Positions 8,343-31,630 of a stretch of 64,000 nt of DNA are shown piece after piece. The stretch is from contig CAYQDB010000001.1 in the NCBI GenBank assembly GCA_964416195.1, positions 26,875 through 90,874 on the forward strand, in the 5' to 3' direction. Below the pieces are notes generated by a model. The model had not been told where the DNA came from. It did not search any database and saw only the letters and a program-made list of their open reading frames with translations. Both the position numbers and the translations under genes were made by a program. Source of the stretch: an uncultured Ignavibacteriales bacterium (GTDB lineage Bacteria; Zixibacteria; MSB-5A5; GN15; FEB-12). How positions within the stretch are numbered: the stretch's first letter is position 1; every line of letters starts with the position of its first letter.

Positions 8343-8368
8343 TACTTGAAGGTTGGTGATAGTAGCTC

Positions 8369-9607: not shown

Positions 9608-9656
9608 GCAGGTCGTCTCCAATCTGTATTAGTCTTGTAATCCCGACAAATATATG

Positions 9657-9689
9657 AAAAAACGCCCGAGTACAGACCGGGCGTTTCTT
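9657..9689. terminator. Bidirectional terminator between convergent genes
   Basis: AAAAAACGCCCG-loop-CGGGCGTTTCTT. Confidence 0.8.
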
Positions 9690-9715
9690 ACTGTAAGTGG
9701 TATTTTCTGTGCAGG

Positions 9716-10288: not shown

Positions 10289-10352
10289 CTTTCCTCCGGT
10301 TAGTTTGGATTTCCTTATCTCAAATTTCTACACTTTGTCTTACCAAAGAGTT

Positions 10353-11864: not shown

Positions 11865-12238
11865 TAGCCATATTATCGGATAATAAGTCCAAACTTATAC
11901 TGACTGACAGGTGGAATATAGAAGTTAGCCCAAAGGCGTTCAAGATAAATCTTATGCAAGTGGCCACGGATTGTAACTCGTTGGACTGCTGGACGTTGGC
12001 CTTTGATGCCCGACATGAAAAATTCACTTGCCCTGCTTCGCTAAGTTGCACTAACACCAAGTCGGGCATTCAGCCGGTTCATGTGGACGGTAGATATCCA
12101 GGGATTGTCTCAAAAGTCTACAGAGTCGTGTAGAGGCATGGGCGCCGCACCTCGCCTTCGGCGGGCGGGCTGTGCGAAGTTAGAAATGTAGGACAAGCCC
12201 TCCTCTGGAGACTGTGCCAAAAGACGGAAACCGCATCC

Positions 12239-12310
12239 CGCGTAGGGCGGGGGCTTGTCTCCCGCCAATAGACGGCGGACGTAAAGCCCGCCGCTACGCG
12301 GAGTTGGAGA
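12239..12310. repeat. GTAG-type REP-like element, copy 1
   Basis: CGCGTAGGGCGGGGGCTTGTCTCCCGCC...CGGCGGACGTAAAGCCCGCCGCTACGCGGAGTT nearly identical to 41090-41173. Confidence 0.85.
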
Positions 12311-12387
12311 CAGTCCCTATGGAATCAATGTGTTCTATACTCACAGAAGTAACGAACTTATGTCACAGCCTCCCTTACGTTTTAACA

Positions 12388-12488
12388 ACGGGAGCGGCAC
12401 AAGGCCGCCCCCTACGCGTTGGTTTTAGTGTGGCGTCAGGTTACTCTGCCTGACGCCTTCTTGTGCTTGGCAGATGTCCACATCTGCC
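12388..12488. repeat. Cluster of REP-like hairpins downstream of the FG-GAP gene
   Basis: ...GGCCGCCCCCTACG; GGCGTCAGG-loop-CCTGACGCC; GGCAGATGTCCACATCTGCC. Confidence 0.7.
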
Positions 12489-12499
12489 CTGTCTGTACG

Positions 12500-14614
12500 C
12501 TACTTCAACAGTATCATCTTCTTAGTATCTACGAATTCACCCGCCTCCAAACGGTACATGTAAACACCACTGGCTGCCTCGCTGCCGTCCCACTGGATAG
12601 TGTGTTCTCCAGCTTCAATCGTACCGTCAACTAAGGTTGCTACTTTCTGGCCCATGATGTTGTAGATTTCCAGTTTCACGTGCGAGGCTGCAGGTAAGGA
12701 GAAACTGATCTCGGTGATCGGGTTGAAGGGGTTGGGGTAGTTGCCAAGCAGAGTAACCGTTGGTGATTCTCCCTTGGAGACAGCAACACCTTCACCTGTC
12801 TTGTGGCTGCCTCGGATCACAACACAATCGATCCCTTCAATGCTTGTGCCGTCGTTAAGCTCTCCGGTAACCGTCAGGGGGATTGTATCCCCGTCGTACA
12901 CTTCACCCAGCGTTTCTACGATCAAGCTCTTATTAAACTTCAGAGTCAGGTCAGGATAGCCGTCGGGGCCAAGTGTATTACACTCACATTCCTCAGCGTC
13001 TTCGCCCACCGGTGTGCTGACGTCTTCGACATTCCAGCGCAGAGCGGGTACTCCTTCTAACATGACTGTCATCGGATCAATGTCTGTGACATTAAAATCT
13101 ACCGTTCCAAGAATTGCTACCGGAAGGACAGCCTTCTTTTTCTTGGGACCGTGAGGCCCTGCCTTCGACGCCACGGGGTTTTCATCGACTTCTCTCAACC
13201 CATGCGTTTTGGGTGCTTTGACGTTGAGGGGATTGGGGCAGGAGCCGGGCTTGATGTCGAGGCTAATCATTACAATTGTGGGTACCATGATATAGACATA
13301 TGCCTTTCCGCATCCGCTGTTGTTCCCTTGTCGTGCTCCGATGATTACATCAGGCAATCCATCATTGTTTACATCCCCGGCACCTGATACAGATATGCCA
13401 AATTCATCGTATTCAGATTCCCCCTCACTCCTAAGTATGCACAACAGAGTACCATCGATGCCGGAATATACGTATGCCCGTCCAGACCAATTATAGGGAT
13501 CATTGTAGCCGTCCGCTCCAACAATTATATCATCATAACCATCACAATTGGCATCTCCCGCGATAGAAACGTCAAGACCAAATTGATCATCAGCGTATTC
13601 GCCCGTGAATATGAGATCTGCATCAGCAGCATTGATTGTAATCGGAAAAGGTTCCGGCCTGCCGTAAAATGCATATGCACGCCCTGCGTAATGTCCGGCT
13701 GTATTATTCCTGTAAGCCCCCACAACAAAATCTACAATGCCATCATTATTAAGATCACCGGCCGATACAGAAAAACCAAAAGCGTCACCTTGAGTTTCGG
13801 CAATCAAATTATATAGTACACTGCCGTCCAAACCTGAATAAACATAGGCCTTAGCTGTTCCATATGGATTCCAAGCTCCAACGAAAAGATCATCATAATC
13901 ATCATTGTTTACATCGCCGGCATCAGAGACTGAGAATCCTAGTCCTCCATCTATAACTGAGCCGGTAAATATCATATCAGCATCTGAAGCGAGAACAGTG
14001 ATGGGAAATGGACCTTCTCCACCATAAAATACATAAGCTCTTCCAGTTCTATTCCCTAAAGCGTCATTGTAGCTGGCTCCGACAATTACATCGGCAAAGC
14101 CGTCATTATTGACATCTCCGGCGCCCGAAATATGATACATGCCGAAACGATCATCTTCTGCTTCGCCTGTAAATGTATATAATAATGATCCGTCAGCGCC
14201 TGAATAGACATAGGCAATACCTGCACCCCAGGACCATATACCAGTCGCTTGCGAAGCTCCAATAATCAGGTCGTCATATCCATCATTATTGACATCCCCG
14301 GCTCCAGAGACTGTCGTACCAAAGAAATCATGATCTGTCGCCCCGGTGAACATGTAAAGTAATGACCCATCCATTCCCGAATAGACATAGGCCCTTCCCG
14401 CGAATAATCCAGCAGCGTCGTTCCCGGGGGCACCGATGATTAAATCGTCAAAACCGTCATCATTGACATCTCCCGCACCTGAAACAGACATACCAAACAC
14501 ATCGTCCAATGCCTCACCAGTGAAGGTATACAATAGTGAACATTGTGGATAAGCGGCTTGCGCGCCAAAAACTAGCAATAATGACAGTACCAACAAATTA
14601 ATTCGCTTTTTCAT
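12500..14614 (-). CDS. Secreted FG-GAP (integrin-alpha-like) repeat protein with C-terminal FlgD-like sorting domain
   Basis: About seven FGxSVSGAGDVNNDGxDDxIIGA repeats, a DIKPGSCPNPLN domain, and NYPNPFNP...DTKKMILLK terminus; signal peptide from ATG 14614. Confidence 0.9.
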   Translation of the reverse strand: MKKRINLLVLSLLLVFGAQAAYPQCSLLYTFTGEALDDVFGMSVSGAGDVNDDGFDDLIIGAPGNDAAGLFAGRAYVYSGMDGSLLYMFTGATDHDFFGTTVSGAGDVNNDGYDDLIIGASQATGIWSWGAGIAYVYSGADGSLLYTFTGEAEDDRFGMYHISGAGDVNNDGFADVIVGASYNDALGNRTGRAYVFYGGEGPFPITVLASDADMIFTGSVIDGGLGFSVSDAGDVNNDDYDDLFVGAWNPYGTAKAYVYSGLDGSVLYNLIAETQGDAFGFSVSAGDLNNDGIVDFVVGAYRNNTAGHYAGRAYAFYGRPEPFPITINAADADLIFTGEYADDQFGLDVSIAGDANCDGYDDIIVGADGYNDPYNWSGRAYVYSGIDGTLLCILRSEGESEYDEFGISVSGAGDVNNDGLPDVIIGARQGNNSGCGKAYVYIMVPTIVMISLDIKPGSCPNPLNVKAPKTHGLREVDENPVASKAGPHGPKKKKAVLPVAILGTVDFNVTDIDPMTVMLEGVPALRWNVEDVSTPVGEDAEECECNTLGPDGYPDLTLKFNKSLIVETLGEVYDGDTIPLTVTGELNDGTSIEGIDCVVIRGSHKTGEGVAVSKGESPTVTLLGNYPNPFNPITEISFSLPAASHVKLEIYNIMGQKVATLVDGTIEAGEHTIQWDGSEAASGVYMYRLEAGEFVDTKKMILLK

Positions 14615-14638
14615 TACGACTTTCCTTTCCAACAAGTT

Positions 14639-14713: not shown

Positions 14714-15157
14714 ATAAGTTCCTCCTCAAAGTTGTGTGATTGTGCTGAAGAATAAGGCCCACCCTCGCATGCAATTGCAGATCATCGTACTCAAATGTTG
14801 TATTGGGTTCATTGCAATCGGCTTGACGGTTAACTGAATCGCCCATTCCAATAACCCTGCGCACGAATCACTCGTTGTTGTTTATTGCTACTCTATTGTT
14901 GAGAAGATAGTCTTTGCTGTGGTCAGTGTCAAGCGAAAAAGGCTGATTTAATGGGGGATTTGGGAGTTTTGGGGTGGCTTTTGTTGGATTTCTCGTCCGC
15001 CAAAGGCCTCCGTGTCGGCCACCAGGCTGGCGGATGGACGGCTCAGGCTGACGGTCTTTGCCGTCGGTTAAGTACTCATGTAACATACTCTCTATCAAAA
15101 AAACAGCAGAAGCTGTGTTTATAATTCAAACTGACGGTATTGAAAAAAGGAAAGACT

Positions 15158-16429
15158 ATGAGTTGGTTACCAAAGAGCCAAAAGAATGACAGTCCTGATT
15201 GGAGTCGGTACAATGGGCTGGCGGCAGCAGTGAGGTCACCGGGCGCGGGTCGTTTCCAGACTGCCGACAGACTGCACTCAATGCTCAAGCTGTCGGTAAG
15301 TGACATACAATCCGGGCGGTATCGTACTCTTTTGTACCGCTTTTTGACCGATAACATCCCGGTCGTCAACGCCTGTATCTGGACCTGGGGCAGACTGTCG
15401 GCAGCTCCGGGGGCGTTCAAGGTCATCGATTGCACAGATGACAAACTCCGGGAGAAAACAGGTCACCGGCTGGAGCAGCTATCGCAACGCCTGTCTGTAA
15501 ATGCCTCGGGTAATCCCGTGGGTCTGGTAACGTTTCTGACCGAACTGTTTACCAGTCTGTACCGAGACGGCGTTTTTGGTGGTTTTTTGACAGTGTCTAA
15601 AGATGCCTCCGGAGTGGATAGGTTTGTCAGTGTTGACGCCACTGACTTGAGGTGGGAAGATACAGACGGCAGCCCACATCTTATCCTGGATCAAGAGACC
15701 GGTAGCCTCAAGCTGAATCGCAGCGATTTCTATTACATTCCTCTCAACGGCGGTCTCTCTGAGCCTCTGGGGCGGTCAATGCTGAAGGCTGTGCCTTTCG
15801 TATCCTTTATTGAGCAGCAACTGGTTGACGATATGCGGCGTGCCAGTCACAACTCTGGTTTCCACCGCCTTCACGTCAAGATCAAGCCGCCGGAGAGGAC
15901 AGCAGGCGAGTCGGACACCGCTTACATAGACCGCATAAACGGCTACTTCGATTCGACCGTGTCGATGATAAAATCGTGCAATGTCGACGACAACCCGGTC
16001 ACGTGGGACAATGTGGCGATTGAACATATCGGTCCGAGTAGTTCCCGTAGCATCACCAATAGCTGGTTTTTCAATCACCGGGCGATGATTGAAGACATCT
16101 GCTCCGGAACTAACCTGTCGCCATTCCTGCTGGGCTATTCCTACGGTGCTACTACCACCTGGTCAGCCTTCAAATTTGACATCGTCATGCGGCAAGTGAG
16201 GTCGGTCCAGGCGGAAGTGGCTCACTTCCTTGAGTGGATAGGCAACATTGATCTGGCTCTGGCTGGGTATAATGCAAAATGCCAGTTCATGTTTGACAAT
16301 ACGTTTGCCTACCAGGCGGCGGATAAGGCGGCTATCGAATCCAGCCGGGTCGACAATATCCTCAAGCTGTATAATGCCGGGCTGGTGGACGAAGAGGCTG
16401 CCCGCGAAAAAGCCGGGGAACTGATATAG
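15158..16429 (+). CDS. Phage portal protein
   Basis: ~420 aa; YRFLTDNIPVVNACI, PLGRSMLKAVPF and ICSGTNLSPFLLG segments match portal architecture; adjacent to TerL; AAAGGA RBS. Confidence 0.75.
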   Translation: MSWLPKSQKNDSPDWSRYNGLAAAVRSPGAGRFQTADRLHSMLKLSVSDIQSGRYRTLLYRFLTDNIPVVNACIWTWGRLSAAPGAFKVIDCTDDKLREKTGHRLEQLSQRLSVNASGNPVGLVTFLTELFTSLYRDGVFGGFLTVSKDASGVDRFVSVDATDLRWEDTDGSPHLILDQETGSLKLNRSDFYYIPLNGGLSEPLGRSMLKAVPFVSFIEQQLVDDMRRASHNSGFHRLHVKIKPPERTAGESDTAYIDRINGYFDSTVSMIKSCNVDDNPVTWDNVAIEHIGPSSSRSITNSWFFNHRAMIEDICSGTNLSPFLLGYSYGATTTWSAFKFDIVMRQVRSVQAEVAHFLEWIGNIDLALAGYNAKCQFMFDNTFAYQAADKAAIESSRVDNILKLYNAGLVDEEAAREKAGELI

Positions 16430-17763
16430 CCAGCGAGATTGACGCCATCGACTGGCGGCGAGGTTTTTTCGATCCTGGTTACTTTGCGGAGGCTGTCTTA
16501 GGAGTCAACCTTCACGATGGTCAGAAGAAATGGCTTGAGAACTCGCACCACCGGGAAAACATTCTGGTGACCGGCAACCGCTGGGGGAAATCGTTTGTAT
16601 CAGCGGTCAAGATCGTCCATCATGCCTTGTACCGTCCCCGCGAACTGAGGTTTGACGCCAGTGGCAAGTATCGAATAGCCACAGCTTCAATAACCCAGGA
16701 TCAGGCCAACATTGTCTTTAACCAGGTCGTCAGACTGGTTAGGCAGTCACCAGTGGTGGAGCCGCTTCTTACGAACCTTATCAGGACCCCTTATCCGAGA
16801 TTAGAATTTGGCAATGGGGCAACTATTGAGGCGCGCTCCACACAGAACCGGGGGGAGTACCTGCTGGGGCATGACTACGACCTTTTCATATTCGATGAAG
16901 TAGCCTTTGAATCCGATCCGGAATACGTGGTCGAAGAGGTTATCCAGATGCGCTTAGCCGACCGGGAGGGGAGGCTTGACTTAGTGTCGACTCCCAACGG
17001 CAGAAACTGGTTCTACCGGCGAGCCAGAGAAGTTATCGAGGGCAAGCGTGACGGCTACTTTCAGTCAGGTGACAGCCGGGAGAATATGTACATCTCACGG
17101 GATTTCCTCGAAGACAGGTTGAAATACTTTTCAGATAGACGGGTTCAGCAGAACATCATGGGTCAGTTCGTCGATTCCGGAGGAGAGATTCTCAAAGGTG
17201 AGTATGTCGACGCTGCTTTGATGCATTATAATGAAATAGAAGGAACGCTTAGAGGGATTAAAGGAACATCGTTCTTGTCGGGGTGGGATCTGGCTCGAAA
17301 GAGAACGGCTACGGTGGGGCTAACGGTTGAAGTAGCCGATGGTTTGGCGAGGGTTGTCTCTCTGGAACGGTTCAGAATGTTTGACTGGAATGTTGTTATT
17401 GAGAAGATCAAGCAGCGGCAATTGGAATACCCTGGTCAGCTTATTATTGACGCTACCGGTCTGGGAGATGTCGTCGTGGAGCAGCTTAAAGAGTTCAATC
17501 CGACAGCGGTTATTTTCACTCCGGCCACTAAAGCGGAACTGCTCACCAATGTCGAGTTGATGCACGCCAGAAATCAGATTGTCTACGAGCGCTGGGAGTT
17601 GCCGGACGGGCCGGGGAAGATTTGGTCGCTGGAGGATGAACTTCGCCAGGCGCGCTGGGATGACAACAATGAGTGTGATGCTTTAATGGCTTTAGCTCTG
17701 GCCCTGTGGCCGCTGCGTAAAAAGAGCGACTTGTCGCCCGCGCCGAGGGTGGGGAGGGTGTGA
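16426..17763 (+). CDS. Terminase large subunit (ATPase + RNase H-like nuclease)
   Basis: Walker A VTGNRWGKS, Walker B FIFDEVAF, coupling motif VSTPNGRNWF, nuclease GWDLAR / IDATGLG / DECDALMA; conserved N-terminus extends upstream of the ORF-track GTG 16567 to about ATA 16426. Confidence 0.9.
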   Translation: MASEIDAIDWRRGFFDPGYFAEAVLGVNLHDGQKKWLENSHHRENILVTGNRWGKSFVSAVKIVHHALYRPRELRFDASGKYRIATASITQDQANIVFNQVVRLVRQSPVVEPLLTNLIRTPYPRLEFGNGATIEARSTQNRGEYLLGHDYDLFIFDEVAFESDPEYVVEEVIQMRLADREGRLDLVSTPNGRNWFYRRAREVIEGKRDGYFQSGDSRENMYISRDFLEDRLKYFSDRRVQQNIMGQFVDSGGEILKGEYVDAALMHYNEIEGTLRGIKGTSFLSGWDLARKRTATVGLTVEVADGLARVVSLERFRMFDWNVVIEKIKQRQLEYPGQLIIDATGLGDVVVEQLKEFNPTAVIFTPATKAELLTNVELMHARNQIVYERWELPDGPGKIWSLEDELRQARWDDNNECDALMALALALWPLRKKSDLSPAPRVGRV

Positions 17764-17849
17764 GGAAGCTTTGCTCGTCAAAAGCGCCCTTCGAAGCTCA
17801 GGATAGGTAGGGCTTTCGATCTACGAATGTCCTACGGAGCAAATGGAGA

Positions 17850-17885
17850 AACGCCCTTTAAGGGGAGGTAGACTTAAAAGGCGTT
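17850..17885. terminator. Stem-loop between convergent TerL and PEP-CTERM genes
   Basis: AACGCCCTTTAAG-loop-CTTAAAAGGCGTT imperfect inverted repeat. Confidence 0.5.
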
Positions 17886-17917
17886 CCGGGGGTAGAGAGG
17901 ATTGGGAAGAACGTTTT

Positions 17918-18241
17918 TTAAGCTTTCCTACGGCGCACCAAACGGATGACACCCAGCCCGGAAGCTAACAGGATCAAGGTCGACGGCTCTGGAATCTCGG
18001 GTGGAGTTGATGGTTCCTGTGAGTCATAGGCCTGGTAGTCGTCGGGAGACTGGCAAGTATTCTGACTATAGGAGTACCAATCGGGTGAGCTATTATTCAG
18101 GCTACCATTTCCGTTCACGTTGCCGGGTGGAATATTCAACCCGTAGACATCGTCAAAAGTCACTGACAGAACCAGAATAATGATAACAAGTCCAAGCAGC
18201 CACTTGAGCCCGTGTCTCTTGTCTCGCATATATACCGTCAT
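17918..18241 (-). CDS. Small PEP-CTERM sorting-domain protein
   Basis: N-terminal hydrophobic helix, N/S/Q/P-rich middle, C-terminal IPEPSTLILLASGLGVIRLVRRRKA; AAAGGA RBS. Confidence 0.85.
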   Translation of the reverse strand: MTVYMRDKRHGLKWLLGLVIIILVLSVTFDDVYGLNIPPGNVNGNGSLNNSSPDWYSYSQNTCQSPDDYQAYDSQEPSTPPEIPEPSTLILLASGLGVIRLVRRRKA

Positions 18242-18498
18242 AAAAAGTCCTTTCTGCGCTTACGTCATCAATCTATTAGCGCCAATACAGTTTGTAGCAA
18301 TGCCCATGCCCGCATGGAACCACAAGTCCGGACGTGGCGGTAACCTGTTAGCTGAACATAAGTTATCAGAATCATATACACTCAATATAAACCGTATTGG
18401 CACCACAATAATTCGCAAGTTTTTGCGCAAAAAGGGGAGAAACCTGTCGTTGAATGCTTACGCTGTACTTTGTTGTAAAGGAAGCAGTTGGAGGTACG

Positions 18499-20016
18499 AT
18501 GGGTGCCAGTTTAGGCAGGATAACAGCTCGTCTGGTGCAGCCGGCAGACGAGGTATTCTCACCAGATTTGGTGGAGTTGATAAACAAGAATATCAACCCG
18601 CCAACGGCCGTGACTAAATCGGATGTCTATATCGGGGCGATGTATGTCGTCTCAGATGAGGTAAACAGCTTCGGAGGAAGATTCCCGGTTGAGGAGCATA
18701 AACATCTGGCCAGTCTGCTTGTCGATTCGCCGGTCATGGCGGGACACCGCAAAGACAGGCTCCCTATAGGGAGGAACTTCCACGCCATCGTGGTTGAGCG
18801 GGATGGAAAGAGCTGGGTAAAAAGCTATTTCTACTGGTTGAAAAGCACCGAAGGAGCCGAGGCGCTGAGGAAGAACATCGATGGCGGTATCTACAAAGAA
18901 TGCTCCATCGGTTTTACATTCCTATTTCCGGAGTGCTCTATCTGCAAAAAAGACATCCGCACTTGCCCCCACGAACCCCTCCAGAGCTACTCGGCGAGTG
19001 GCGATCACGACAGCGTCATCTGCCACTTCAATTACCGTAAGATCGAGCGGGTTTTGGAAACCTCACTGGTCTACCGCGGGTCAGTGCCGGACACGTCAGT
19101 TTCAAGGGAACTAGCAGTTGTCGGTGGCAGAGAAGCAGATGGATACACCGCTCGTCCTGACCGGGTGACACTCATCAACAGCCTTTCGGAACTTGAACCT
19201 AAAGAAGAGTACCTGCTGGTTCCATTCTACGAGTCACTTCCGGTAATGGTTACTCTCAAAAAAGGCACATTGCGCCTGCGTCGACCTAACGGCGAACCGA
19301 TCGGCAGCGAAATATGCTCGGGCTTTCCAATCAGACGCCCGCTTGAAATGGATCGGGCCTACGGGCACCTGGTAGCCTACCGCGGCCGCGAACGCTGTTC
19401 ACTAGAGCAGTTGGAACGGTACCTGACGGGGCGCCCAAGTCCAGTCACGCGGTTGGAGATAAAACTGTTTCCACCTACCGGTCTGGCCGTGGCAAAAGGG
19501 AGTGACGACACTGCACCCAACAGGATCCAACTTATCCGGCACAGCATTACGAGAGTAAGCAATCTCGATAACTCTGCCCGCTCGATCATGACCCGTGACG
19601 GAGTGCGGCTCTGGCCACTGGGCAGCAACCCGTTGCAGTTTGCCGGTTACCAGTACCGCCCATCTAAACAGGATGCAGTCAAAGATGGAAGTTATACACT
19701 GACCTGTAACAGTAGCAGTCCCTTCGCTACTCTTGCGCTCGCGGACTCAGGCCGCATCGAGATGTTTCGGATAAGTCAATTCAACCTGGCCAGACTGCTC
19801 AGAGGGGGGAGGTTTATTGCAGATAAGGCGGAGGTTCGATCAGTTAAGGCGCCGCCGGGTGACAGGAGGACTACCCAGGGACAGATAGTATCGCTGGTCA
19901 ATCGCGATGAAGGAATTGCCGCGGATTTGACGGGACCTTTGTCGGGCAGGTTTATTTTGAGACCGGCGAGGCTTGACGGGCAGAGACGATACTTATTTTA
20001 CAGGATTGCTTCCTAA
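18499..20016 (+). CDS. HK97-type prohead protease fused to degenerate ATP-dependent ligase-like and LigD phosphoesterase-like domains
   Basis: PVMAGH, IYKECSIGF, CSIC...CPH and ETSLVYRGS (protease); C-terminal half carries degenerate ligase motifs in order; GGAGG RBS before ATG 18499. Confidence 0.7.
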   Translation: MGASLGRITARLVQPADEVFSPDLVELINKNINPPTAVTKSDVYIGAMYVVSDEVNSFGGRFPVEEHKHLASLLVDSPVMAGHRKDRLPIGRNFHAIVVERDGKSWVKSYFYWLKSTEGAEALRKNIDGGIYKECSIGFTFLFPECSICKKDIRTCPHEPLQSYSASGDHDSVICHFNYRKIERVLETSLVYRGSVPDTSVSRELAVVGGREADGYTARPDRVTLINSLSELEPKEEYLLVPFYESLPVMVTLKKGTLRLRRPNGEPIGSEICSGFPIRRPLEMDRAYGHLVAYRGRERCSLEQLERYLTGRPSPVTRLEIKLFPPTGLAVAKGSDDTAPNRIQLIRHSITRVSNLDNSARSIMTRDGVRLWPLGSNPLQFAGYQYRPSKQDAVKDGSYTLTCNSSSPFATLALADSGRIEMFRISQFNLARLLRGGRFIADKAEVRSVKAPPGDRRTTQGQIVSLVNRDEGIAADLTGPLSGRFILRPARLDGQRRYLFYRIAS

Positions 20017-20322
20017 CGGATATCGACCGGGCTCAAGATACTGTTGGGGCCACCCTCGAGGTGCAACTTCACCAGCCCTACCGTCAGAGAGTAATACTCC
20101 CTGCTCTGAACAATCAGGGGTAGTAACGGTAATGCCGTATGCGGAGCCAACAGAAACAATCGTGTTTGTCTGGAGGTAGTTAAGGGTGCGGTTGTTTGCA
20201 AACCCGAGCAGGCTGGAGCCGTCGAGATGTTCAAGCGGGTAGACTATTACGTCATCTTCACCGCAACCGAGCAGAGAACATCCAGCTAAACCCCAATTGT
20301 GAAAGCTGGAAAACCTAGACAC
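19993..20322 (-). CDS. Hypothetical small lipoprotein-like protein (possibly truncated)
   Basis: Perfect AAGGAGGT RBS before GTG; LLGC-GEDD lipobox-like motif. Confidence 0.45.
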   Translation of the reverse strand: MSRFSSFHNWGLAGCSLLGCGEDDVIVYPLEHLDGSSLLGFANNRTLNYLQTNTIVSVGSAYGITVTTPDCSEQGVLLSDGRAGEVAPRGWPQQYLEPGRYPLGSNPVK

Positions 20323-20383
20323 AGTACCTCCTTCCCTAAATAGAATGAAGCCCTAAGCATTTCAAAAAACTTGGGAGGACACG

Positions 20384-20695
20384 ATGTATAGTATTCATGG
20401 TGAGCGAGGGATTCAGTTGACCGGACAACTAATCAATCTGCTAACGATCGTCGTTGGAATCGCAGCGGCCTACTTCCTTACTATTCAGTCACTGAAAACT
20501 GAGCTGGAGACCAAGGCGGAAGGCGCCGTGGTGGAAGTGCTTGACAAGAAACTTGCCGGTTTTGAGGTGATCCTGAAGGAGGGAGTCGTTGGTAGAGAGC
20601 AGTTCTTTCGCTTCTCAAAGGATATCGAAGCGCGATTGACGCGAATTGAACAGTATCTAAAAGATCAATCGGGGGAGCACATTGGAAGACCATAA
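20384..20695 (+). CDS. Single-TM coiled-coil protein (holin/XhlA-like accessory)
   Basis: GGGAGG RBS; one TM helix LINLLTIVVGIAAAYFL then a heptad-rich tail. Confidence 0.55.
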   Translation: MYSIHGERGIQLTGQLINLLTIVVGIAAAYFLTIQSLKTELETKAEGAVVEVLDKKLAGFEVILKEGVVGREQFFRFSKDIEARLTRIEQYLKDQSGEHIGRP

Positions 20696-21095
20696 CAAAC
20701 AGAACGCGCATGTCAATGAATTGGCTGATTCGTTGACCGATGACAAAATGTCTCTCATAGATTTCGATCGGCTAAAACAGTACCTGGCAGAAACGGCAAA
20801 GACTCATAATGAACTCCGGGAAGTACGGAGTGATCTCGGCGTTTTGCGCTGTGACTATATCAACCGTATCGGAGGGATGGTCAAGGCGATAGCGGCGGTG
20901 AATCGTCATCCCGACGGATGGGAAACCGCCCTGACGTACTTGGAGAACCTGCCGTCCTTGAGCGCCGGCGAGCTTGTTGAGCAATATCGGAAAACGGCAG
21001 CTCGCTTCCGCGATGCCTTTCCTACTAGCTTTGGATTAGCACCGAATAGGAAACGGGGCAACGACGGGTTTAAGGACCTAAGAGTTTACAAGTAG
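20682..21095 (+). CDS. Putative capsid scaffolding protein
   Basis: Helical coiled coil directly before decoration and MCP genes; GGGGAG RBS before TTG. Confidence 0.5.
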   Translation: MEDHNKQNAHVNELADSLTDDKMSLIDFDRLKQYLAETAKTHNELREVRSDLGVLRCDYINRIGGMVKAIAAVNRHPDGWETALTYLENLPSLSAGELVEQYRKTAARFRDAFPTSFGLAPNRKRGNDGFKDLRVYK

Positions 21096-21244
21096 ACCTA
21101 TAGACTTAGAGGGATCTTACATCCCGATCAGGGGGATACACTCCCGGTCACACTATTGAACGGGGCAGATGAGGACTCGCCTCTGGCGAGCCGCCCACAA
21201 GATCCGCCTCTGGCGGACCGTGCATGAAATGTAAAGGAGATGCT

Positions 21245-21664
21245 ATGACAGTAAGAGACCAAAACCTTGAAGCCATTGCACCTGTGCTGGCTACGTTTAA
21301 GATCAAGCAGACCGGCGGCGTCGATGACCTGAAAGATGCCAATATCGGTGAGCCAGTGACCCTAACCGGGAATAACGAGGTCGGTCCAATTGGCAGCGGA
21401 GATCAGTTGCTGGGCAAGCTGATCGCCCTCACGTTGACCGACAACGATGATGGCGATCGCCTGGCGACCGTTCAGGTTGGCGGCATTTGTCGTCTTCCTA
21501 TCTCCTCAACCTACCCGCAGGTAGGTAACCGTGTTGTCGGCGGAAGTTCCGCCACCGTGAAGCAGGCGCCTACCGTGGCATCGGACCCGGCAGGGGGCAA
21601 CATTGCCAGGGGGACGGTGCTTGAGGTCAACGGAACCACTGACTGTGTGATTCTGCTCAATTAG
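21245..21664 (+). CDS. Head decoration (cement) protein, DUF2190-like
   Basis: ~140 aa, Gly-rich beta protein (GEPVTLTGNNEV, ATVQVGGICRLP) immediately upstream of MCP; AAAGGAG RBS. Confidence 0.7.
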   Translation: MTVRDQNLEAIAPVLATFKIKQTGGVDDLKDANIGEPVTLTGNNEVGPIGSGDQLLGKLIALTLTDNDDGDRLATVQVGGICRLPISSTYPQVGNRVVGGSSATVKQAPTVASDPAGGNIARGTVLEVNGTTDCVILLN

Positions 21665-21676
21665 AAAGGAACAACC

Positions 21677-22780
21677 ATGGACTTTAACAAATTCCTGCAA
21701 TCGGCGGTCTATGCCGGTATGAAGCACGGGCTTGATTCGGACAACATGACCGGCCCGGTCGATTTGGGCCGCGCCGCCGCAATCGAAGTAAACAAGGACC
21801 TCTACCTCGAAGCTGAAGCGCGGGGTCTGTCTCTGTCCGAGCTGCTGGAGCTCGACGAATTCGATCCCACGCCGCCTGGCTGTCCACTTGACGCTTTCGA
21901 ACGCCAGCTTGCCCTGGCAGGGATACGACTGAGCGGCAAGTCGCCTATGACGGTTGAGCAACTCTACCAGCAAGCCCCTACCCTGTTGCCGGAGTTCATG
22001 CTCCGTGAGATCAAGCGAGGACAGGCGATGCGTCCGGAACTCGGCCGCCTGGTAGCCAACACCACCAGCGTCGCCAGCAACAGCTACACGCCTTTCTTCA
22101 TCAATACCGCCGACGACACCAAGTTCTCTATGCGGCCGATCGGCGAGGGGGCTGATATTCCCCAGCTTGTGGTTACCGAACAGACGCACGCGGTCAGTGT
22201 GGCTGACTATGGCCTGGCCCTGAAGACCAGCTACAAGGCTCTTCGCTACCGGACCACTTCCCAGTTCCGAGTGCTGTTGTGGTATATCGGGTTTAAGATC
22301 CAGACTGACAAGATAGGGATGCTGGTCGGCACCATCATCAACGGAGACGGCAATGACAACGCCGCTACGGTGATCAACACTGCCGCCAGCGGAACTCTTA
22401 CCTACGACGATCTAATCAGCCTCTGGTCACAGTTCAGCCCCTTTGAGATGAACACTATCATCTGCCATGTCAACCAGATGAAGGAGATCCTGACTCTGGA
22501 TGAGTTCAAGGACCCGATGGCCGGCTACCGCTTCCAGCAGACGGGCGATCTGTTCAGCCCCTTGGGAGCAACCTTAGTGCGCTCCGACGAGATAGCCACC
22601 GATCTGGTGCTGGGACTGGACAAGCGGTTTGGTGTTGAAGAAGTCATTACCCAGCCGTTGATGGTCGAGTATGACAAGGTCATCGAGCAACGATTCGAAG
22701 AGGCAGTCATCTCGGAATCTGTCACATACGCCAAGGTAATTAAGGAAGCCTCGGTCGTTCTCGACACAGTATGGAGTTAG
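21677..22780 (+). CDS. HK97-fold major capsid protein
   Basis: 367 aa; LLPEF, PIGEGADIP, YGLALKTSYKAL, IINGDGND and VEYDKVIEQ segments typical of HK97-fold MCPs; AAAGGA RBS. Confidence 0.85.
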   Translation: MDFNKFLQSAVYAGMKHGLDSDNMTGPVDLGRAAAIEVNKDLYLEAEARGLSLSELLELDEFDPTPPGCPLDAFERQLALAGIRLSGKSPMTVEQLYQQAPTLLPEFMLREIKRGQAMRPELGRLVANTTSVASNSYTPFFINTADDTKFSMRPIGEGADIPQLVVTEQTHAVSVADYGLALKTSYKALRYRTTSQFRVLLWYIGFKIQTDKIGMLVGTIINGDGNDNAATVINTAASGTLTYDDLISLWSQFSPFEMNTIICHVNQMKEILTLDEFKDPMAGYRFQQTGDLFSPLGATLVRSDEIATDLVLGLDKRFGVEEVITQPLMVEYDKVIEQRFEEAVISESVTYAKVIKEASVVLDTVWS

Positions 22781-22787
22781 TTCTTGT

Positions 22788-22812
22788 GGGGACTCGGGTG
22801 GTCCGAGTCCCC
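22788..22812 (+). terminator. Strong hairpin right after the MCP gene (terminator or stabiliser)
   Basis: GGGGACTCGG-GTGGT-CCGAGTCCCC, 10-bp perfect stem. Confidence 0.7.
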
Positions 22813-22831
22813 CTTAACTTACAGAGGAACG

Positions 22832-24244
22832 ATGCAGAAGAAAATAACTGAGACAACCGGAAGCTACGGTCTTGGGATGCCGCCGGGACGCAAACTCCTG
22901 AGGGTATCTTCCGGTCAGTACGCCGGGCGGCTGGTGGCTATCATGCAAACGTCCTCCGGCGAGATCAAGTACTCCTATGCCGATCGGCCGTACACATCCT
23001 GGTCATCTCTGACTGTAATCGCTACCGCCGCCGCCGATCAGCCGTGCGACTGCGTGATGGACAATGATGGCCATATTCATGTAGTTTATTCTGAGAATTC
23101 CACCGAGTACCTTGTTACCAGGAAACTGACCTTCTCCGGCGGGACCTGGTCAGTGGGGTCCAAAGTGACCGTATACAATGGCTATCCGTCGCGGTATCCC
23201 TCCCTTGCTATCGAGACAGGGGGTAAGCTCTGGGTGAGTTGGACCCGGATCGACGGCGGCGTCCGCTACGCGCATGCCAAGTCATCTACGGATGGCGGGG
23301 CCACCTGGGGCAGCGGGCCATCGGACTCCGGCGACGCTCTGACCGCGGGAGCGTCATCGGCCTACTCCAAAGTCCTCGTTGGACCTAACGATATACACGT
23401 TGTCTACACCAACGGCGGATTGAACCTTTCTATCCGTTCCCAACCGATTGCGGGAGGAAACTGGACAGGTGAGTATAATATAGCCACCGGCACTACATTC
23501 GATCAGCATTTTGACGCTGCCATCTCGTCTGACGGTTCGTTGGGGGTGGTGTTCGACCACGGTCAGTTGAAGTACCGCGAACACAATGGTGTCAGTTGGG
23601 GTTCGGTTGTTACCCTGGACAGCGATGGAGGAGACTTCCCACAGCTACTATTCAGCGATGGCGTGCCCGCTATTGTTTACCTCTCTTCCCTGGCTTCAGA
23701 TCAGGTCCTGGTGAAATGTACAACTCGCGCTACCGGGAGCTTTTCCTCGCCCGCTGTTCTGGACGAGCGTGCCAAGCAGTTCGATTCGGTAACGCTATAC
23801 GACGCCTCCGCCGCCAGCTATGCCGACCTGACCAACGCCGCCGGAAGCAGCAGCACCGCAGATATATATCATCCCAACTCCAGCGTTCTTATCAAGGACA
23901 GCGGCGACATTATCTATCTGGGCATGGACCAGCGCTTCCGCTACGTAAAGTTTCTTCTCTCGACGGCCGGCAGCGGCGGCACGGTTGTTTACAGTTACTG
24001 GGACGGATCCAACTGGAAGGCTTTCACACCTACCGGCGGTTCTTTTAACCTGGACTCAACGGACAAAAACCTGTTGCTGTGGGATGATTACGTGAGTATG
24101 CCCGGCGACTGGCAAAAGAAGCTGGTGAACGGCCAGACAAGGTTCTGGCTGAAAATCGAGGTCGACTCGGCCTTTACCACGGGACCCATCGGAAGTCAGA
24201 TTACGGCTGCATCCGACCTGCAGGCGTTCATTGTAAGGAGGTAG
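22832..24244 (+). CDS. BNR/Asp-box beta-propeller protein, putative virion structural protein
   Basis: Asp-box AKSSTDGGATW, repeated Trp/Gly blades, C-terminal YWDGSNW / FWLKIEV domain; no signal peptide. Confidence 0.6.
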   Translation: MQKKITETTGSYGLGMPPGRKLLRVSSGQYAGRLVAIMQTSSGEIKYSYADRPYTSWSSLTVIATAAADQPCDCVMDNDGHIHVVYSENSTEYLVTRKLTFSGGTWSVGSKVTVYNGYPSRYPSLAIETGGKLWVSWTRIDGGVRYAHAKSSTDGGATWGSGPSDSGDALTAGASSAYSKVLVGPNDIHVVYTNGGLNLSIRSQPIAGGNWTGEYNIATGTTFDQHFDAAISSDGSLGVVFDHGQLKYREHNGVSWGSVVTLDSDGGDFPQLLFSDGVPAIVYLSSLASDQVLVKCTTRATGSFSSPAVLDERAKQFDSVTLYDASAASYADLTNAAGSSSTADIYHPNSSVLIKDSGDIIYLGMDQRFRYVKFLLSTAGSGGTVVYSYWDGSNWKAFTPTGGSFNLDSTDKNLLLWDDYVSMPGDWQKKLVNGQTRFWLKIEVDSAFTTGPIGSQITAASDLQAFIVRR

Positions 24245-24247
24245 AGC

Positions 24248-25057
24248 GTGTCGTACACGAACGTTGAACTGGTCAGGCACCATCTGGTCGCAACCTTCCC
24301 GACCCAGGAGAAGGTTTATGATCAACCGGTGATTCCTGAGAGTGATTATGTCACATTTTTCAACGGGCCGGTTGAGTCTTCGTCGGTTACAGTCAAATCC
24401 ATTCACAGTAACACGCCGACACGGGCGACGATCACTCTCGACAATGAAAAAACCTCACTGGCTTCTTTGCCGCTGGTGCGCGGATCGGTAGTGGTGGCAT
24501 CCGACAGCTCTCTGGGGACTGTGTATGCTGAGAATGTCGATTATATAATCGACTATGTTCTGGGAGACCTGACAATCAAAGAGGGTGGCGGATTGACAAC
24601 AGGTCAAAGCGTTACCGTTTGGTATCAGAGCTACTTTGTATACACCCTCGGGAACGACTACCAGCTCGACGGCAATCGTGGTCGCCTCAAGAGGCTCTCC
24701 GGTGGAGAGATCGCCTCGGGTGAGACAGTGTACCTTGACTACGCGCCGGTCTACCAGAGCTTCAACGAGGAGATTCTCGCTAAAGCGGTGCTGGAGGCCA
24801 ATGGACTGATCGAAAGTGCAGTGGACCCGGACGGCCAATTCGGCGCCGACCCGGTGCTTCAGGCGTGTGCCACCTACCGAGCCTTAGAGATTATCTGCCG
24901 CGCCTCGGCAGCCCGAGAACTTTCCAGTCTGCGAGGAGAAGATCGCACCGCTCTGGCCTGGATAAAGCTGGCCGAGACTTACGCCGAGCGATCGGAGCAA
25001 CTGCTGAGTTCATTCCGCCCGCCGTTCGATGGTCCCACACCGCCGGTGCACAGTTAA
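24248..25057 (+). CDS. Head-tail adaptor-like protein with inserted beta-domains
   Basis: N-terminal YTNVELVR and C-terminal helical AVLEANGLIES...LQACATYRALEI resemble gp6/gp36-type adaptors; two internal YxxxxDY repeats. Confidence 0.5.
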   Translation: MSYTNVELVRHHLVATFPTQEKVYDQPVIPESDYVTFFNGPVESSSVTVKSIHSNTPTRATITLDNEKTSLASLPLVRGSVVVASDSSLGTVYAENVDYIIDYVLGDLTIKEGGGLTTGQSVTVWYQSYFVYTLGNDYQLDGNRGRLKRLSGGEIASGETVYLDYAPVYQSFNEEILAKAVLEANGLIESAVDPDGQFGADPVLQACATYRALEIICRASAARELSSLRGEDRTALAWIKLAETYAERSEQLLSSFRPPFDGPTPPVHS

Positions 25058-25067
25058 AGGAGGACAA

Positions 25068-25442
25068 ATGACTACAGGATTTGAAAGAGTGACGGCTCGC
25101 AGGGCCTGGTTTGTACCCGGTTTCGTCGTCTGGGGGCTTCCTGTTTGGGAGGAGATCGAATTCCTGACCATAGAGAAGGTCGCATCCGACAAGACAGTAC
25201 TGTATGGCTCTCAAGATATTGGTGGCACGGCGCAGGAGGTAACCTTCAGCGACTTAACCGATCATCGGGGAAACCAGTTGCCATCAATTATCGCATCGCC
25301 GCGGGTTATCATTCGTGGTCGAGGCAGAGACTCGGCTTTTATCGTCAGTGAAGAATCCGAAATGAAATTCAAGATTGCCCGCGACCCGGAAGCCGCAGGA
25401 CCAGTAACGGCCGACCTTCTGGTTGTTGAGTTGGGTAGCTAA
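25068..25442 (+). CDS. Hypothetical beta-rich protein (possible fibre-tip/lectin-like domain)
   Basis: AAAGGAGG RBS; 124 aa; VTF...SPRVII...FKI...DLLVVE pattern. Confidence 0.55.
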   Translation: MTTGFERVTARRAWFVPGFVVWGLPVWEEIEFLTIEKVASDKTVLYGSQDIGGTAQEVTFSDLTDHRGNQLPSIIASPRVIIRGRGRDSAFIVSEESEMKFKIARDPEAAGPVTADLLVVELGS

Positions 25443-25443
25443 G

Positions 25444-25740
25444 ATGCCTCGCGCCGGACGGAACTCGGCCAAGTTCCCAGATGATCTGTCAATGCTTGAT
25501 GATCTGATCAGGCGTTACTATCGGGAACTCCTAAGAAGCGTTGAGGAACATGTCAAACTGGGAGATTTTATCAAGATGATCGAATTGAGACGCAAGCTGG
25601 CTCCCAGCGACTCCGAACAGAAGCGGTTCTGGAGAATGCTGGAGAGAATACGTCAAGAAGCACTGCGACAAGACGACGTAAAACCACCCACGCACAAAAA
25701 ACGGGTCTCAAAAAAGCGGCAGACCAGGGAGCCTAAATGA
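25444..25740 (+). CDS. Small helical basic protein, candidate terminase small subunit
   Basis: 98 aa, helical core KLGDFIKMIELRRKL and basic tail KKRVSKKRQ; coupled to neighbours. Confidence 0.4.
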   Translation: MPRAGRNSAKFPDDLSMLDDLIRRYYRELLRSVEEHVKLGDFIKMIELRRKLAPSDSEQKRFWRMLERIRQEALRQDDVKPPTHKKRVSKKRQTREPK

Positions 25741-26507
25741 AAGGAAGGACAATCTGCGCGATCATCATAGCGCTTGTCACACCTGTGTGCAGTATCCCGG
25801 CTGCGGTAGACACGCTGAAAGGGACATCGGATATTGAGGACTGCACTATCTACTCGTGGGCTAACTGCAATTCCGAAATCACGGGTGAAGACTGCCGTCG
25901 GTACAATTCGGGTTCGATTACGAGTCTGCAAGTGGGTGTCTCAGGTGTAAGCACCGAGCGGCGAACATTGCTCAGCCTTCCCGGTTGGGATAGAACCATG
26001 CCAGATTCTTCGAAGTTGTTGCTATACTGCAAGGGTGAGGCCGACGGAGTCGATCGCAAAATTTTCCTCTATCCGGTGACTACGCAGTTTTACGAGGGGA
26101 CGGAGCTGTCGTACAACCTCGGCGATTACCCCGACCCAGACAGTGGAGCCACCTGGAACCATGCCTGGCTCGATGTAGGTGATGGAGATTCTTCCGTTTG
26201 GTCTTCTGCGGGAGGTGACTACACCACTGCCATAGCTTGTACCGTTACAGTAACTGACACCGGTCAGTACTTCGCTTTTGGCGATTTCAACAGGATCCTC
26301 AATTACTGGGATACTTCCGGTAGTGCCTACGGTCTGATTTTGATAAACGAAAATGCTTTCCCAGGCAATACCACCATGAAAACCTTCAACGCCACCGAGG
26401 GCGACAGCGCCAGTGGTCCGTTGGTGATTCTATACTACGGTGGTGCTGCGGTTTCATGGCGGCTTCGTATGATAAAATCTCTTGGGAAGAACCAGCGTGG
26501 TGTTTAA
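25737..26507 (+). CDS. Secreted DNRLRE-domain protein
   Basis: Signal peptide; EDCTIY, ERRTLLSL, ATWNHAW, WSSAGGDY and GPLVILYY motifs. Confidence 0.7.
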   Translation: MKGRTICAIIIALVTPVCSIPAAVDTLKGTSDIEDCTIYSWANCNSEITGEDCRRYNSGSITSLQVGVSGVSTERRTLLSLPGWDRTMPDSSKLLLYCKGEADGVDRKIFLYPVTTQFYEGTELSYNLGDYPDPDSGATWNHAWLDVGDGDSSVWSSAGGDYTTAIACTVTVTDTGQYFAFGDFNRILNYWDTSGSAYGLILINENAFPGNTTMKTFNATEGDSASGPLVILYYGGAAVSWRLRMIKSLGKNQRGV

Positions 26508-26546
26508 TGATATTCATTTTGTGCAAGGTAAGCGATCATTGTTCAA

Positions 26547-26570
26547 GTCACCCTGAGCGGAGTCGAAGGG
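26547..26570. repeat. REP-like half-element GTCACCCTGAGCGGAGTCGAAGGG
   Basis: A degenerate complementary half (CCCTTCGAAGCTCAGGAT) lies at about 17787-17804. Confidence 0.6.
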
Positions 26571-26645
26571 TGATGAAAACAGTCAAAACTCAACCTACAG
26601 ATTAGTCAAAGCAATGGCTATAAGCAAAGGAGGATGTAACAAGAA

Positions 26646-27845
26646 ATGCAAACAGGGCCTATGCGAATCATTGCATTCACAATCGTCTTGATATTAACAG
26701 CGGCAACGTTGTCGGCATCAATTGTCAACAACTCAACCTCATCACCAACCGCCGAGGATTCGCTGTCGTTTGTTTTTTACTCACTGGACAGCATCGGCAA
26801 TCCGACGACAGCGGACTCGCTATATATCCTGGTAACAGGACCAACTGGAACGGTGGTATACAAAGACTCGGTAGCGTCTTCTGACAGCCGCATCACCTCC
26901 ACCACCGTCAGGGGAAAGCAGTTCTACTCGTTTGCGGAGCAGGTGTCCGATATTGACGGTTCGGGCGCTGCCGGACACTATGTTATCACCCTACTGGCCA
27001 AGAAAAACAACGGGGATCTTCTCACTCCGAATACATACTCGTTCCAGATCATCAGCGAGGAGCTGTCCGACCAGATAGCGCTCATAGGAGACTCCGTGTA
27101 TGTGAAGGGTGGGGCAGTCGATTCCAACCGCACGGAAATGGGCGGTTCAGGAGATTCCACGTCCATGGCTCGCTGGGTCTGGAACGCCCCTCAGATAAAC
27201 CACACTACAAGCGGCAGCTTCGGCAAGTATCTCGACACCGAGGTCTCAGGAATAAGCGGCGGCGCGGGGGCCTATTCATTCACGGTCGTAACCTTTGATT
27301 CTTCCGTCAGCCAGACCGTCCCACAGGCAGCCCTCGCGGTGCGTAATGTGAGCCAGACCTCGCTCATAGCAACCGGCAGAACCGGCAACGAGGGCACGGC
27401 AATGTTTAACCTCGATGCCGATAGCTTTGTCGTAGTGGCGACAGCCCCGGGCTATTCCTTTGACGCCTACGACACCATCGTCGTCAGCGGGACGGGAAGC
27501 GATACCATCTTCGGAGACCAGTTTGATCCGGGGTCTCCATCAGCACCGCAGTTGTGTCGCGTGTATGGTTTCCTGTACGATATCACCGGGCAGCCGGAAG
27601 AGGGGGCTTCGGTAACAGCATGTCTTCCTTCAGGGGTGGTGCAATATGTAGTAGTGGTTGTGTCACCCTACTCAGTTTCAACAACTACCGACAGCTCCGG
27701 TTACTTCTACCTCGACCTGATACCATCGGACTCACTCATCCCCCCCGGCACTAAGTACGAGTTTACGATAAGCCGTACCGATGGAACGATTCTCAGGCAA
27801 CGCCTAACAGTGCCTGATTCTACGCAATGGCGACTGACATGGTAG
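26646..27845 (+). CDS. Secreted beta-rich protein resembling phage fibre/structural proteins, with carboxypeptidase-regulatory-like domains
   Basis: Signal peptide MRIIAFTIVLILTAATLSA; VWNAPQINHTTSGSFGKYLD and TTDSSGYFYLDLIP motifs. Confidence 0.6.
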   Translation: MQTGPMRIIAFTIVLILTAATLSASIVNNSTSSPTAEDSLSFVFYSLDSIGNPTTADSLYILVTGPTGTVVYKDSVASSDSRITSTTVRGKQFYSFAEQVSDIDGSGAAGHYVITLLAKKNNGDLLTPNTYSFQIISEELSDQIALIGDSVYVKGGAVDSNRTEMGGSGDSTSMARWVWNAPQINHTTSGSFGKYLDTEVSGISGGAGAYSFTVVTFDSSVSQTVPQAALAVRNVSQTSLIATGRTGNEGTAMFNLDADSFVVVATAPGYSFDAYDTIVVSGTGSDTIFGDQFDPGSPSAPQLCRVYGFLYDITGQPEEGASVTACLPSGVVQYVVVVVSPYSVSTTTDSSGYFYLDLIPSDSLIPPGTKYEFTISRTDGTILRQRLTVPDSTQWRLTW

Positions 27846-31506: not shown

Positions 31507-31630
31507 CAGGTATCTCCTCATCCTGTTGAGTCTTTGCCTTTCTCTTGATTATCGAGCGTTTTGGCATATACTTGATGGGAAAAAACGGACAGAACGTGAC
31601 TTTGCGAGCATTGAGTACCCGGCACAGCCC

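Follow-up and report, generated by a model that had tools for sequence, protein, structure and literature searches.

Why would a viral-type capsid-maturation protease carry, in the same polypeptide, a half that resembles a DNA-joining enzyme? This question is raised by a gene in a 64,000-nucleotide (nt) stretch of contig CAYQDB010000001.1 (assembly GCA_964416195.1, positions 26,875 to 90,874) from an uncultured bacterium of the Zixibacteria lineage; the whole stretch is called the window here. The gene occupies positions 18499-20016 and was read in an earlier note, from the letters alone, as a prohead protease fused to catalytically dead ATP-dependent ligase and LigD phosphoesterase-like domains. 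Sequence comparison and structure prediction describe a three-part protein: a predicted protease with intact His83 and Ser136, a linker, and a module derived from a LigD-type cassette which has kept neither the OB domain nor the catalytic residues.

Domain architecture of the fusion protein

The features of the gene are given below, with amino acids (aa) counted from ATG 18499.

18490..18495, + strand: ribosome-binding site GGAGGT (GGAGG at 18490-18494, 4 nt before ATG 18499)
18499..20016, + strand: whole gene, 505-aa fusion of prohead protease, dead ligase nucleotidyltransferase (NTase) and dead LigD phosphoesterase (PE)
18499..18558, + strand: aa 1-20, conserved N-terminal peptide of low pLDDT (predicted local distance difference test)
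18559..19077, + strand: aa 21-193, prohead (capsid maturation) serine protease domain, S78/HK97 gp4-like fold
18745..18747, + strand: codon of His83 (GHRKD), candidate catalytic His, invariant in 199/199
18904..18906, + strand: codon of Ser136 (ECSIGF), candidate catalytic Ser, invariant in 199/199
18934..18972, + strand: Cys146-x2-Cys149-x6-Cys156-x-His158, putative zinc knuckle inside the protease domain
19078..19158, + strand: aa 194-220, variable, disordered, acidic linker, pLDDT <50
19159..19674, + strand: aa 221-392, ATP-dependent-ligase NTase-like domain, catalytically dead, net charge +6.9
19219..19236, + strand: motif I remnant VPFYES (equivalent to EPKYDG, Lys replaced by Phe243), placed by profile-profile alignment
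19360..19395, + strand: motif III remnant YGHLV (equivalent to DGELV, Glu replaced by His290) and family signature YRGRER
19597..19614, + strand: motif IV remnant DGVRLW (equivalent to EGAMVK, Lys replaced by Trp372)
19675..20013, + strand: aa 393-505, LigD 3'-phosphoesterase-like beta-barrel, net charge +7.8

The open reading frame (ORF) extends from 18454 to 20016 on the forward strand, with its stop codon at 20014-20016. Its functional start is ATG 18499 (Met16 of the ORF), where the earlier note had put it: GGAGG lies 4 nt upstream, and the homologues, of ~505 aa, all begin at the equivalent Met. In the N-terminal peptide M1, G6 and A10 are found in at least 90% of sequences and L12 is invariant; the peptide might serve in capsid targeting.

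By sequence the window protein is nearly silent. No match was found in Pfam (E<=1), NCBIfam (E<=10) or PDB sequences (phmmer), and a profile of the C-terminal half gave no match either. A Pfam scan of 55 aligned homologues gave noise only and no relevant family, and in PHROGs the protein matches a single unnamed family, phrog_16951, over aa 18-165. The AlphaFold2 model built on the family alignment has a mean pLDDT of 81 and is folded over aa ~21-193 and ~223-505, with the disordered linker 194-220 in between. A second AlphaFold model, of aa 221-505 alone, reached pLDDT 87.

Relatives with an intact cassette

The profile of the C-terminal half was searched exhaustively with HMMER over 1.84 billion representative proteins, which gave 170 proteins at E<=1e-3. 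The most distant of them (P0239, P0240, P0241 and P0245) carry PF01068, the ATP-dependent DNA ligase domain, at E 6e-18 to 1e-30. P0240 is a metagenomic protein of 745 aa, named 'hypothetical protein', whose protease domain is 58% identical to that of the window. Its ligase is complete (EPKYDGVR, DGELV, FDILY, EGAMVK, WFKWKK) and is followed by the OB domain and then by a PE domain that retains QKH...HHDLR and YH..W..FEG; the protein matches phrog_114 (ATP-dependent DNA ligase) at E 8e-26. P0252, of 740 aa and from a different sample, has the same architecture, and the motifs across the two read EPKYDGxR, DGE(L/I)V, FD, EGAM(V/I)K and WF(K/E)WKK. A homologue with an intact KxDG, which the earlier note had proposed to look for, thus exists in two forms. 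The P0240 gene was found on 3 contigs and in the matching slot of a syntenic cluster of portal, terminase large subunit (TerL), protease and major capsid protein (MCP) genes, and it is therefore a real orthologue and not an assembly chimera. The MCP of that cluster is 62% and its phrog_4588 protein 61% identical to those of the window.

The window protein shares with P0240 and P0252 the gene slot and the order NTase then PE. It differs in having lost the ligase motifs, the OB domain and a ~90-aa segment, all present in P0240 and P0252, and the PE His/Asp/Arg residues, present in P0240. This segment (KLVGGxxxKGYSDHDIDL..., P0240 aa ~228-317, also in P0241 and P0239) stands before the ligase in the intact forms. 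Neither PDB nor Pfam gave a match to it, and its interpretation as a minimal Pol-beta-type nucleotidyltransferase was dropped because PDB support was lacking.

Other forms lie between and beside these. A clade of ~600-aa proteins with 17 representatives has kept a degenerate OB domain (hhalign prob 90%, E 1.7e-6). P0250, a 408-aa cluster from Zixibacteria, consists of the protease, the ~90-aa segment and a PE-like domain that follows it, without a ligase. By sequence comparison the family forms a series, from intact NTase+OB+PE to dead NTase+OB+PE and then to dead NTase+PE, the form of the window. In a rough neighbour-joining tree of the protease domains the intact and ~600-aa forms group together in a single clade nested among the ~500-aa forms, and the outgroups are long dead forms; the tree is too weakly resolved to count losses of the OB domain or of the Lys.

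The ligase-like nucleotidyltransferase domain

When the AlphaFold2 model was compared with PDB using Foldseek, the top matches were ATP-dependent DNA ligases and the vaccinia capping enzyme D1, at E 5e-6 to 1e-3 and prob ~1.0. The model of aa 221-505 alone recovered ligases and capping enzymes again. Across the two models the matches include archaeal and human ligases (3gde, 3rr5, 4eq5, 2hiv and human Lig1/3/4) and vaccinia D1, at E 1e-4 to 1e-3 and prob 1.0. In profile-profile comparison with hhalign, the NTase-like domain aligned to the NTase of the intact relatives over 151 columns (prob 97.4%, E 1.4e-11), and the whole C-terminal half aligned to their ligase-OB-PE region over 278 columns (prob 97.4%, E 1.1e-11). 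Cross-domain control pairs all failed (prob <1%, E 0.08-0.74). The PF01068 hidden Markov model (HMM) does not match the window protein, but as judged from the predicted structures and profile alignments the domain has the NTase fold of the ligase superfamily.

The strings quoted in the earlier note are all present in the translation (RLRRPNG at aa 259-265, YGHLV at 288-292, DGVRLW at 367-372, YQYRP at 384-388 and LTGPLSGRFILRPARLDGQRRYLFYR at 477-502). It had taken the first three, together with VPFYES, as degenerate motifs Ia, III, IV and I, and the profile alignment to PF01068-bearing relatives places each of the four on its motif, RLRRPNG falling on the motif Ia turn of the intact forms. 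VPFYES itself occupies aa 241-246, or 19219-19236; the position given before, 19225-19236, covers FYES only. The column of the motif I Lys is hypervariable (R, A, Y, F, H, C, N, L and others), with K in 6 of 210 relatives, two of the six being intact forms. The motif III Glu and the motif IV Lys are absent from the family and not just from the window protein, so that the loss of the catalytic Lys, Glu and Lys, as first suspected from one sequence, holds family-wide. Conserved instead are R295, G296, E298 and R299 of the signature YRGRER, which are invariant or nearly so; the intact forms have YKGRTR or YRGKSR.

The reading of YQYRP as motif V is probably wrong, for the motif V/OB segment has been deleted, and what the string matches, weakly, are remnants of the OB domain. 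The motif V segment, with its Lys-x-Lys, is missing from the window-family alignment. A single gap in the window family lies opposite P0240 ~499-606, where the OB domain follows the NTase, and the domains of the window C-terminal half compare with the OB profile at prob <1% (hhalign). The deletion of the OB domain had gone unnoticed in the earlier note.

The LigD 3'-phosphoesterase-like domain

With the model of aa 221-505, Foldseek matched the archaeal LigD-PE 3p43 over its whole length (124 columns, root-mean-square deviation (rmsd) 3.8 A, TMt 0.66, prob 1.0). The PE-like domain aligned by hhalign to the PE of the intact relatives over 99 columns (prob 95.5%, E 1.6e-8), and the PE profile of those relatives matches PDB 3p43 (E 3.4e-8) and 3p4h (E 4.9e-7), which completes the chain from the window protein to bona fide LigD-PE. 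The LigD_N HMM, PF13298, does not match the window protein; in P0239 and P0240 it gives weak matches (E 6e-4 and 1e-2) below the cut-off. LTGPLSGRFILRPARLDGQRRYLFYR, proposed as the end of a LigD-PE domain, does align with the last strands of this domain. With both folds recovered from the models, the outcome that would have told against the first reading, a C-terminal half with no structural similarity to NTase or LigD-PE folds, was not seen.

Since the ligase matches spanned 260-320 columns, the last domain was also considered as the OB fold of a ligase. This was rejected, hhalign giving 0.3% for OB against the above value for PE, together with the match to 3p43.

The active site of LigD-PE, consisting of the Mn-binding His/His/Asp and of Arg, His and Tyr, is not preserved. 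FATLA aligns to HHDLR of P0240, so that His is replaced by Ala410, Asp by Thr411 and Arg by Ala413, and opposite the first His there is a gap. The EDHxxxYxxFEG loop, which holds the second active-site His and the Tyr (YH..W..FEG in P0240), is deleted. The absence of His/Asp metal ligands, pointed out previously, therefore extends to the whole family, with ligand residues replaced and the loop gone.

The prohead protease domain

The N-terminal domain had been called an HK97-type protease, and this is well founded. Foldseek against BFVD gave a prohead serine protease as the top match (E 5.2e-12, TMt 0.67), followed by more than 10 further annotated prohead proteases, many of them COG3740. In a tblastn search of GenBank phages the head maturation protease of Enterococcus phage fHoEfm07 was found at 31% identity (E 6e-10). 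That protein passes the cut-off of PF04586 (23.7 bits vs 21), its own His/Ser pair falls on His83 and Ser136 in the alignment, and its gene is part of a module of portal, MuF, protease and phrog_3922 MCP. PF04586 matched neither the window protein nor the 55 homologues, and membership by HMM is accordingly transitive, through the fHoEfm07 protease. Other marks of S78 proteases are present, namely an assemblin-like fold, the aligned His/Ser and the position in a head module.

The domain has a mean identity of 71% across the family. In its putative zinc knuckle Cys146, Cys149 and Cys156 are invariant in 199 relatives and His158 is found in 198. The fHoEfm07 protease has no counterpart of this CCCH knuckle, which is therefore a family-specific insertion. 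Full-query alignments to vaccinia D1 had raised the candidate of a triphosphatase tunnel for the N-terminal domain; it was rejected on an rmsd of 22 A, as against the BFVD protease matches and the sequence links.

Distribution and conservation of the family

A search of 5.8 billion proteins gave 521 full-length homologues with 43-73% identity. Every named one is a 'hypothetical protein', and nearly all come from metagenome-assembled genomes of Zixibacteria, including chromosomes of 3.2-3.6 Mb. The fusion protein is encoded in 169 GTDB species representatives, nearly all labelled Zixibacteria or GN15, and IMG/VR holds no relative of it. In most of these representatives and of the 521 homologues the length of ~500 aa is kept without truncation. 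Identity in the C-terminal half is 39% and 35%, compared with 71% for the protease half, with P242, Y244, G296, R299 and F439 invariant. From its occurrence in 169 genomes, its pLDDT of 87 and these invariant residues, the C-terminal half is still under constraint.

Proposed role of the C-terminal module

By analogy with other prohead proteases, the fusion protein would co-assemble inside the procapsid formed by the neighbouring MCP and portal, and the protease would bring the C-terminal module in with it. Autoproteolysis, probably within the linker (aa 194-220), may release the module there. In lineages with an intact cassette the particle would then contain an enzyme for processing and sealing DNA ends. 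In the lineage of the window the module would act without catalysis, and we tentatively favour, at somewhat less than even confidence, a basic internal protein which binds DNA or DNA ends and escorts or protects the packaged DNA, over a role in assembly. The explanation as a whole, architecture together with cargo mechanism, we place just on the probable side.

The charge of the module lends weak support to a switch to stoichiometric nucleic-acid binding: the family medians are +2.1 for the NT-like and +4.8 for the PE-like domain, and the modules of intact P0240 are acidic. Apart from the basic charge, it is the position of the gene that speaks for a DNA-binding or end-protecting cargo. Other observations weigh against such a DNA-binding role. 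The charge of the module ranges from -9 to +10 in the family and is modest at the median, and the OB domain, needed by ligases to clamp DNA, is missing. The rate of evolution of the C-terminal half is about double that of the protease, as would also be expected if the constraint on it were relaxed or purely structural. In CP070674 the fusion is intact though the MCP is truncated, so that a capsid-independent role or recent decay is possible.

The alternative that survives best is that the module is now only an assembly element, a scaffold or capsid-targeting part that contacts the MCP or portal and has no role with nucleic acid. We regard this as unlikely. The module sits where protease-scaffold fusions carry the scaffold part, such fusions being known as lambda C/Nu3, P2 gpO and Mu I/Z. 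The loss of catalytic residues and of the DNA-clamping OB domain and the faster divergence than that of the protease are as expected for it, and no canonical scaffold was identified in the cluster by any library scan. However, two small conserved ORFs (20384-21095) are better scaffold candidates, and globular folds such as the NTase and the beta-barrel do not resemble the coiled-coil scaffolds that are known. Intact enzyme forms stand in the same gene slot, and therefore the ancestral role was not scaffolding.

An improbable alternative is that the module retains a different catalytic or nucleotide-binding activity through R295, G296, E298, R299, R318, T365 and R438. Dead and intact forms do have in common the Y-R-G-K/R-E/x-R signature that follows motif III, and several Arg and Glu residues show little or no variation. 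Yet a Lys or His nucleophile is not conserved anywhere in aa 221-505, the residues of the AMP (adenosine monophosphate) pocket are all gone, the PE domain has lost its metal site and loop by deletion, and conservation is only 35-39%.

Slightly less credible again is a functionless relic in slow decay, retained through an essential protease. Fast evolution, the loss of catalytic residues and of one whole domain, and the variable architectures of the family (408, ~500, ~600 and ~745 aa) would suit a relic. A maintained length of ~500 aa, a confident model (pLDDT 87) and invariant positions that persist among sequences only 30% identical would not.

Finally, a chance motif match to ligase and PE in an unrelated fold, to which the lack of any Pfam, NCBIfam or PDB sequence match for the window protein itself might point, can hardly be credited and is refuted by Foldseek on two independent models, by hhalign at E 1e-11 and 1.6e-8 with failing cross-controls, and by bridge proteins that match PF01068 and the LigD-PE of PDB.

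Comparison with known systems

Fusions of prohead proteases to scaffold or capsid proteins are known. The protein described here is a prohead protease with a novel enzyme-derived passenger, and a literature search returned no description of a prohead protease fused to a DNA ligase/phosphoesterase cassette. The S78 proteases of caudoviruses (HK97 gp4, fHoEfm07) have the same fold, the aligned His/Ser and a gene upstream of a phrog_3922 MCP. The window protein differs from them in the CCCH knuckle after the Ser motif and in a 285-aa enzyme-derived tail, where they have a short tail or scaffold.

With bacterial LigD and archaeal LigD-PE (3p43, 3p4h) the window protein shares the NTase and PE folds and the C-terminal strands L-x-G-x-L-x-G-x-[FY]-x-L-R...LF[YW][KR]. 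Unlike LigD, it lacks the Lys nucleophile, the OB domain, the polymerase domain and the Mn ligands; its order is Lig-(OB)-PE, and it is fused to a capsid protease. The ligase of the archaeal virus ANMV-1 (AJP62006.1, 866 aa; KP703175.1, locus L089, 3200-5800) matches the Lig-OB-PE of P0240, with which it was compared in place of the window protein, over 97% of its length (25% identity, E 2e-24). An archaeal virus thus has the Lig-OB-PE order as well, in a protein with no protease fusion whose gene stands outside a head module.

Internal proteins or DNA-end protectors delivered with the capsid include the T4 internal proteins and gp2, Mu N and MuF-fused toxins. They resemble the present case in the concept of a head-packaged protein that travels with DNA or guards it. 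They differ in having no fusion to a maturation protease and an unrelated fold; the packaging and DNA binding of the window protein are putative.

The family series within one gene slot is a clean system for following the conversion of an enzyme into a structural or binding module without catalysis. Packaging of the module, if it occurs, would be a new way to load cargo into tailed-phage-type capsids, and the end-joining enzyme of the intact lineages would then be the first of its kind carried in a capsid. Since Pfam and NCBIfam detect none of the three domains, the family is a candidate for new profile models.

The head-gene cluster and its chromosomal setting

The fusion gene lies in a head-gene cluster of ~13 kb (15140-27845), whose other identified members are as follows.

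15140..16429, + strand: portal protein (phrog_3753, E 4e-21)
16567..17763, + strand: terminase large subunit (PF03237, phrog_2)
20384..21095, + strand: two small overlapping ORFs, of 103 and 137 aa, conserved in the cluster and possibly the scaffold
21224..21664, + strand: virion structural protein (phrog_4588)
21677..22780, + strand: HK97-fold major capsid protein (phrog_3922, E 4e-61)

The left flank (7314-11864) encodes a GT2 protein, a PD-(D/E)XK nuclease, a 190-aa ORF and a TPR protein, and is common to CP070777, CP070674, CP070756 and a 712-kb contig. The right flank (29362-31521) has a DUF7451/dockerin protein common to CP070777 and the 712-kb contig. Identities of the flank and cluster proteins with these four divergent Zixibacteria genomes are 41-73% (41-58% for the left flank), and unrelated genes, differing between genomes, are inserted within the cluster. 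No tRNA was found in the window. Among the scanned ORFs of the cluster and its nearest flanks there is no integrase or replication gene, and the cluster has no recognisable tail genes. Contigs from metagenomes of the salt-marsh sediments that harbour this genome cross both cluster junctions with flat read depth. A search for RNA runs returned none.

Because the flanks are shared in four genomes and IMG/VR has no relative, the comparison suggests that a vertically inherited, domesticated cluster like that of a gene transfer agent (GTA) fits better than a mobile prophage. GTAs of the RcGTA type likewise have a head-gene cluster without integrase or replication genes, constant flanks and no place in viral contig collections, whereas the window cluster is without recognised tail genes and is known here from its genes alone. 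A literature search returned nothing on a GTA in Zixibacteria, and the papers it gave on prophages there were not relevant. The cluster resembles an unrecognised domesticated virus-like element of an uncultured phylum, missed by virus-detection collections, and therefore bears on horizontal gene transfer in sediments. The wider picture would be a domesticated GTA-like capsid system, widespread and vertically inherited in Zixibacteria, whose protease delivers a LigD-type end-repair cassette. In few lineages the cassette would be active, so that end joining and 3'-end cleaning travel with the DNA, and in most it would be an inert DNA-end binder guarding or escorting the transferred DNA; we offer it as a speculation that is rather unlikely to hold in full.

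Contig joints from ~26571 to ~12469 were considered as att or circle junctions and dropped, as no matching repeat occurs in the window and the depth is flat; the joints, with unmatched letters between their two ends, probably reflect dispersed short repeats. The intergenic region 11667-12500 has 4-8x the depth of the surrounding contig in four salt-marsh runs and many contig breaks, as a multi-copy short repeat.

The cluster is decayed in some genomes, L001 (CP070674.1) and L087 (CP070756.1). L001 has a truncated MCP of 153 aa (12726-13183) and other genes in place of the downstream ones, with portal, TerL and the fusion as full-length ORFs.

The PD-(D/E)XK exonuclease gene at 8369-9607 on the forward strand (phrog_69, E 9e-35; PF12705 in syntenic loci) stands beside the cluster in all compared genomes and may belong to the host or be left over from the ancestral phage. 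Between the TPR and portal genes, a 711-aa protein is encoded at 12500-14635 on the reverse strand, with internal repeats of ~180 nt that look FG-GAP-like by eye (D-x-N-x-D-G). Among the compared loci only its C-terminal ~62 aa were matched, in L003/L004 only (48% identity). The protein is thus mostly without counterpart and therefore a lineage-specific insertion at the cluster edge.

Between TerL and the fusion gene, other Zixibacteria have one or two genes of chagasin-family inhibitors (PF09394, Inhibitor_I42), at the following loci.

L001, 8486-9399: chagasin-family inhibitor
L002, 9071-9472: chagasin-family inhibitor
L087, 8312-8713: chagasin-family inhibitor
L088, 4830-5231: chagasin-family inhibitor

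The window has no chagasin-type gene there and has instead a 107-aa ORF on the reverse strand (17918-18241), whose C-terminus resembles a PEP-CTERM signal by eye.

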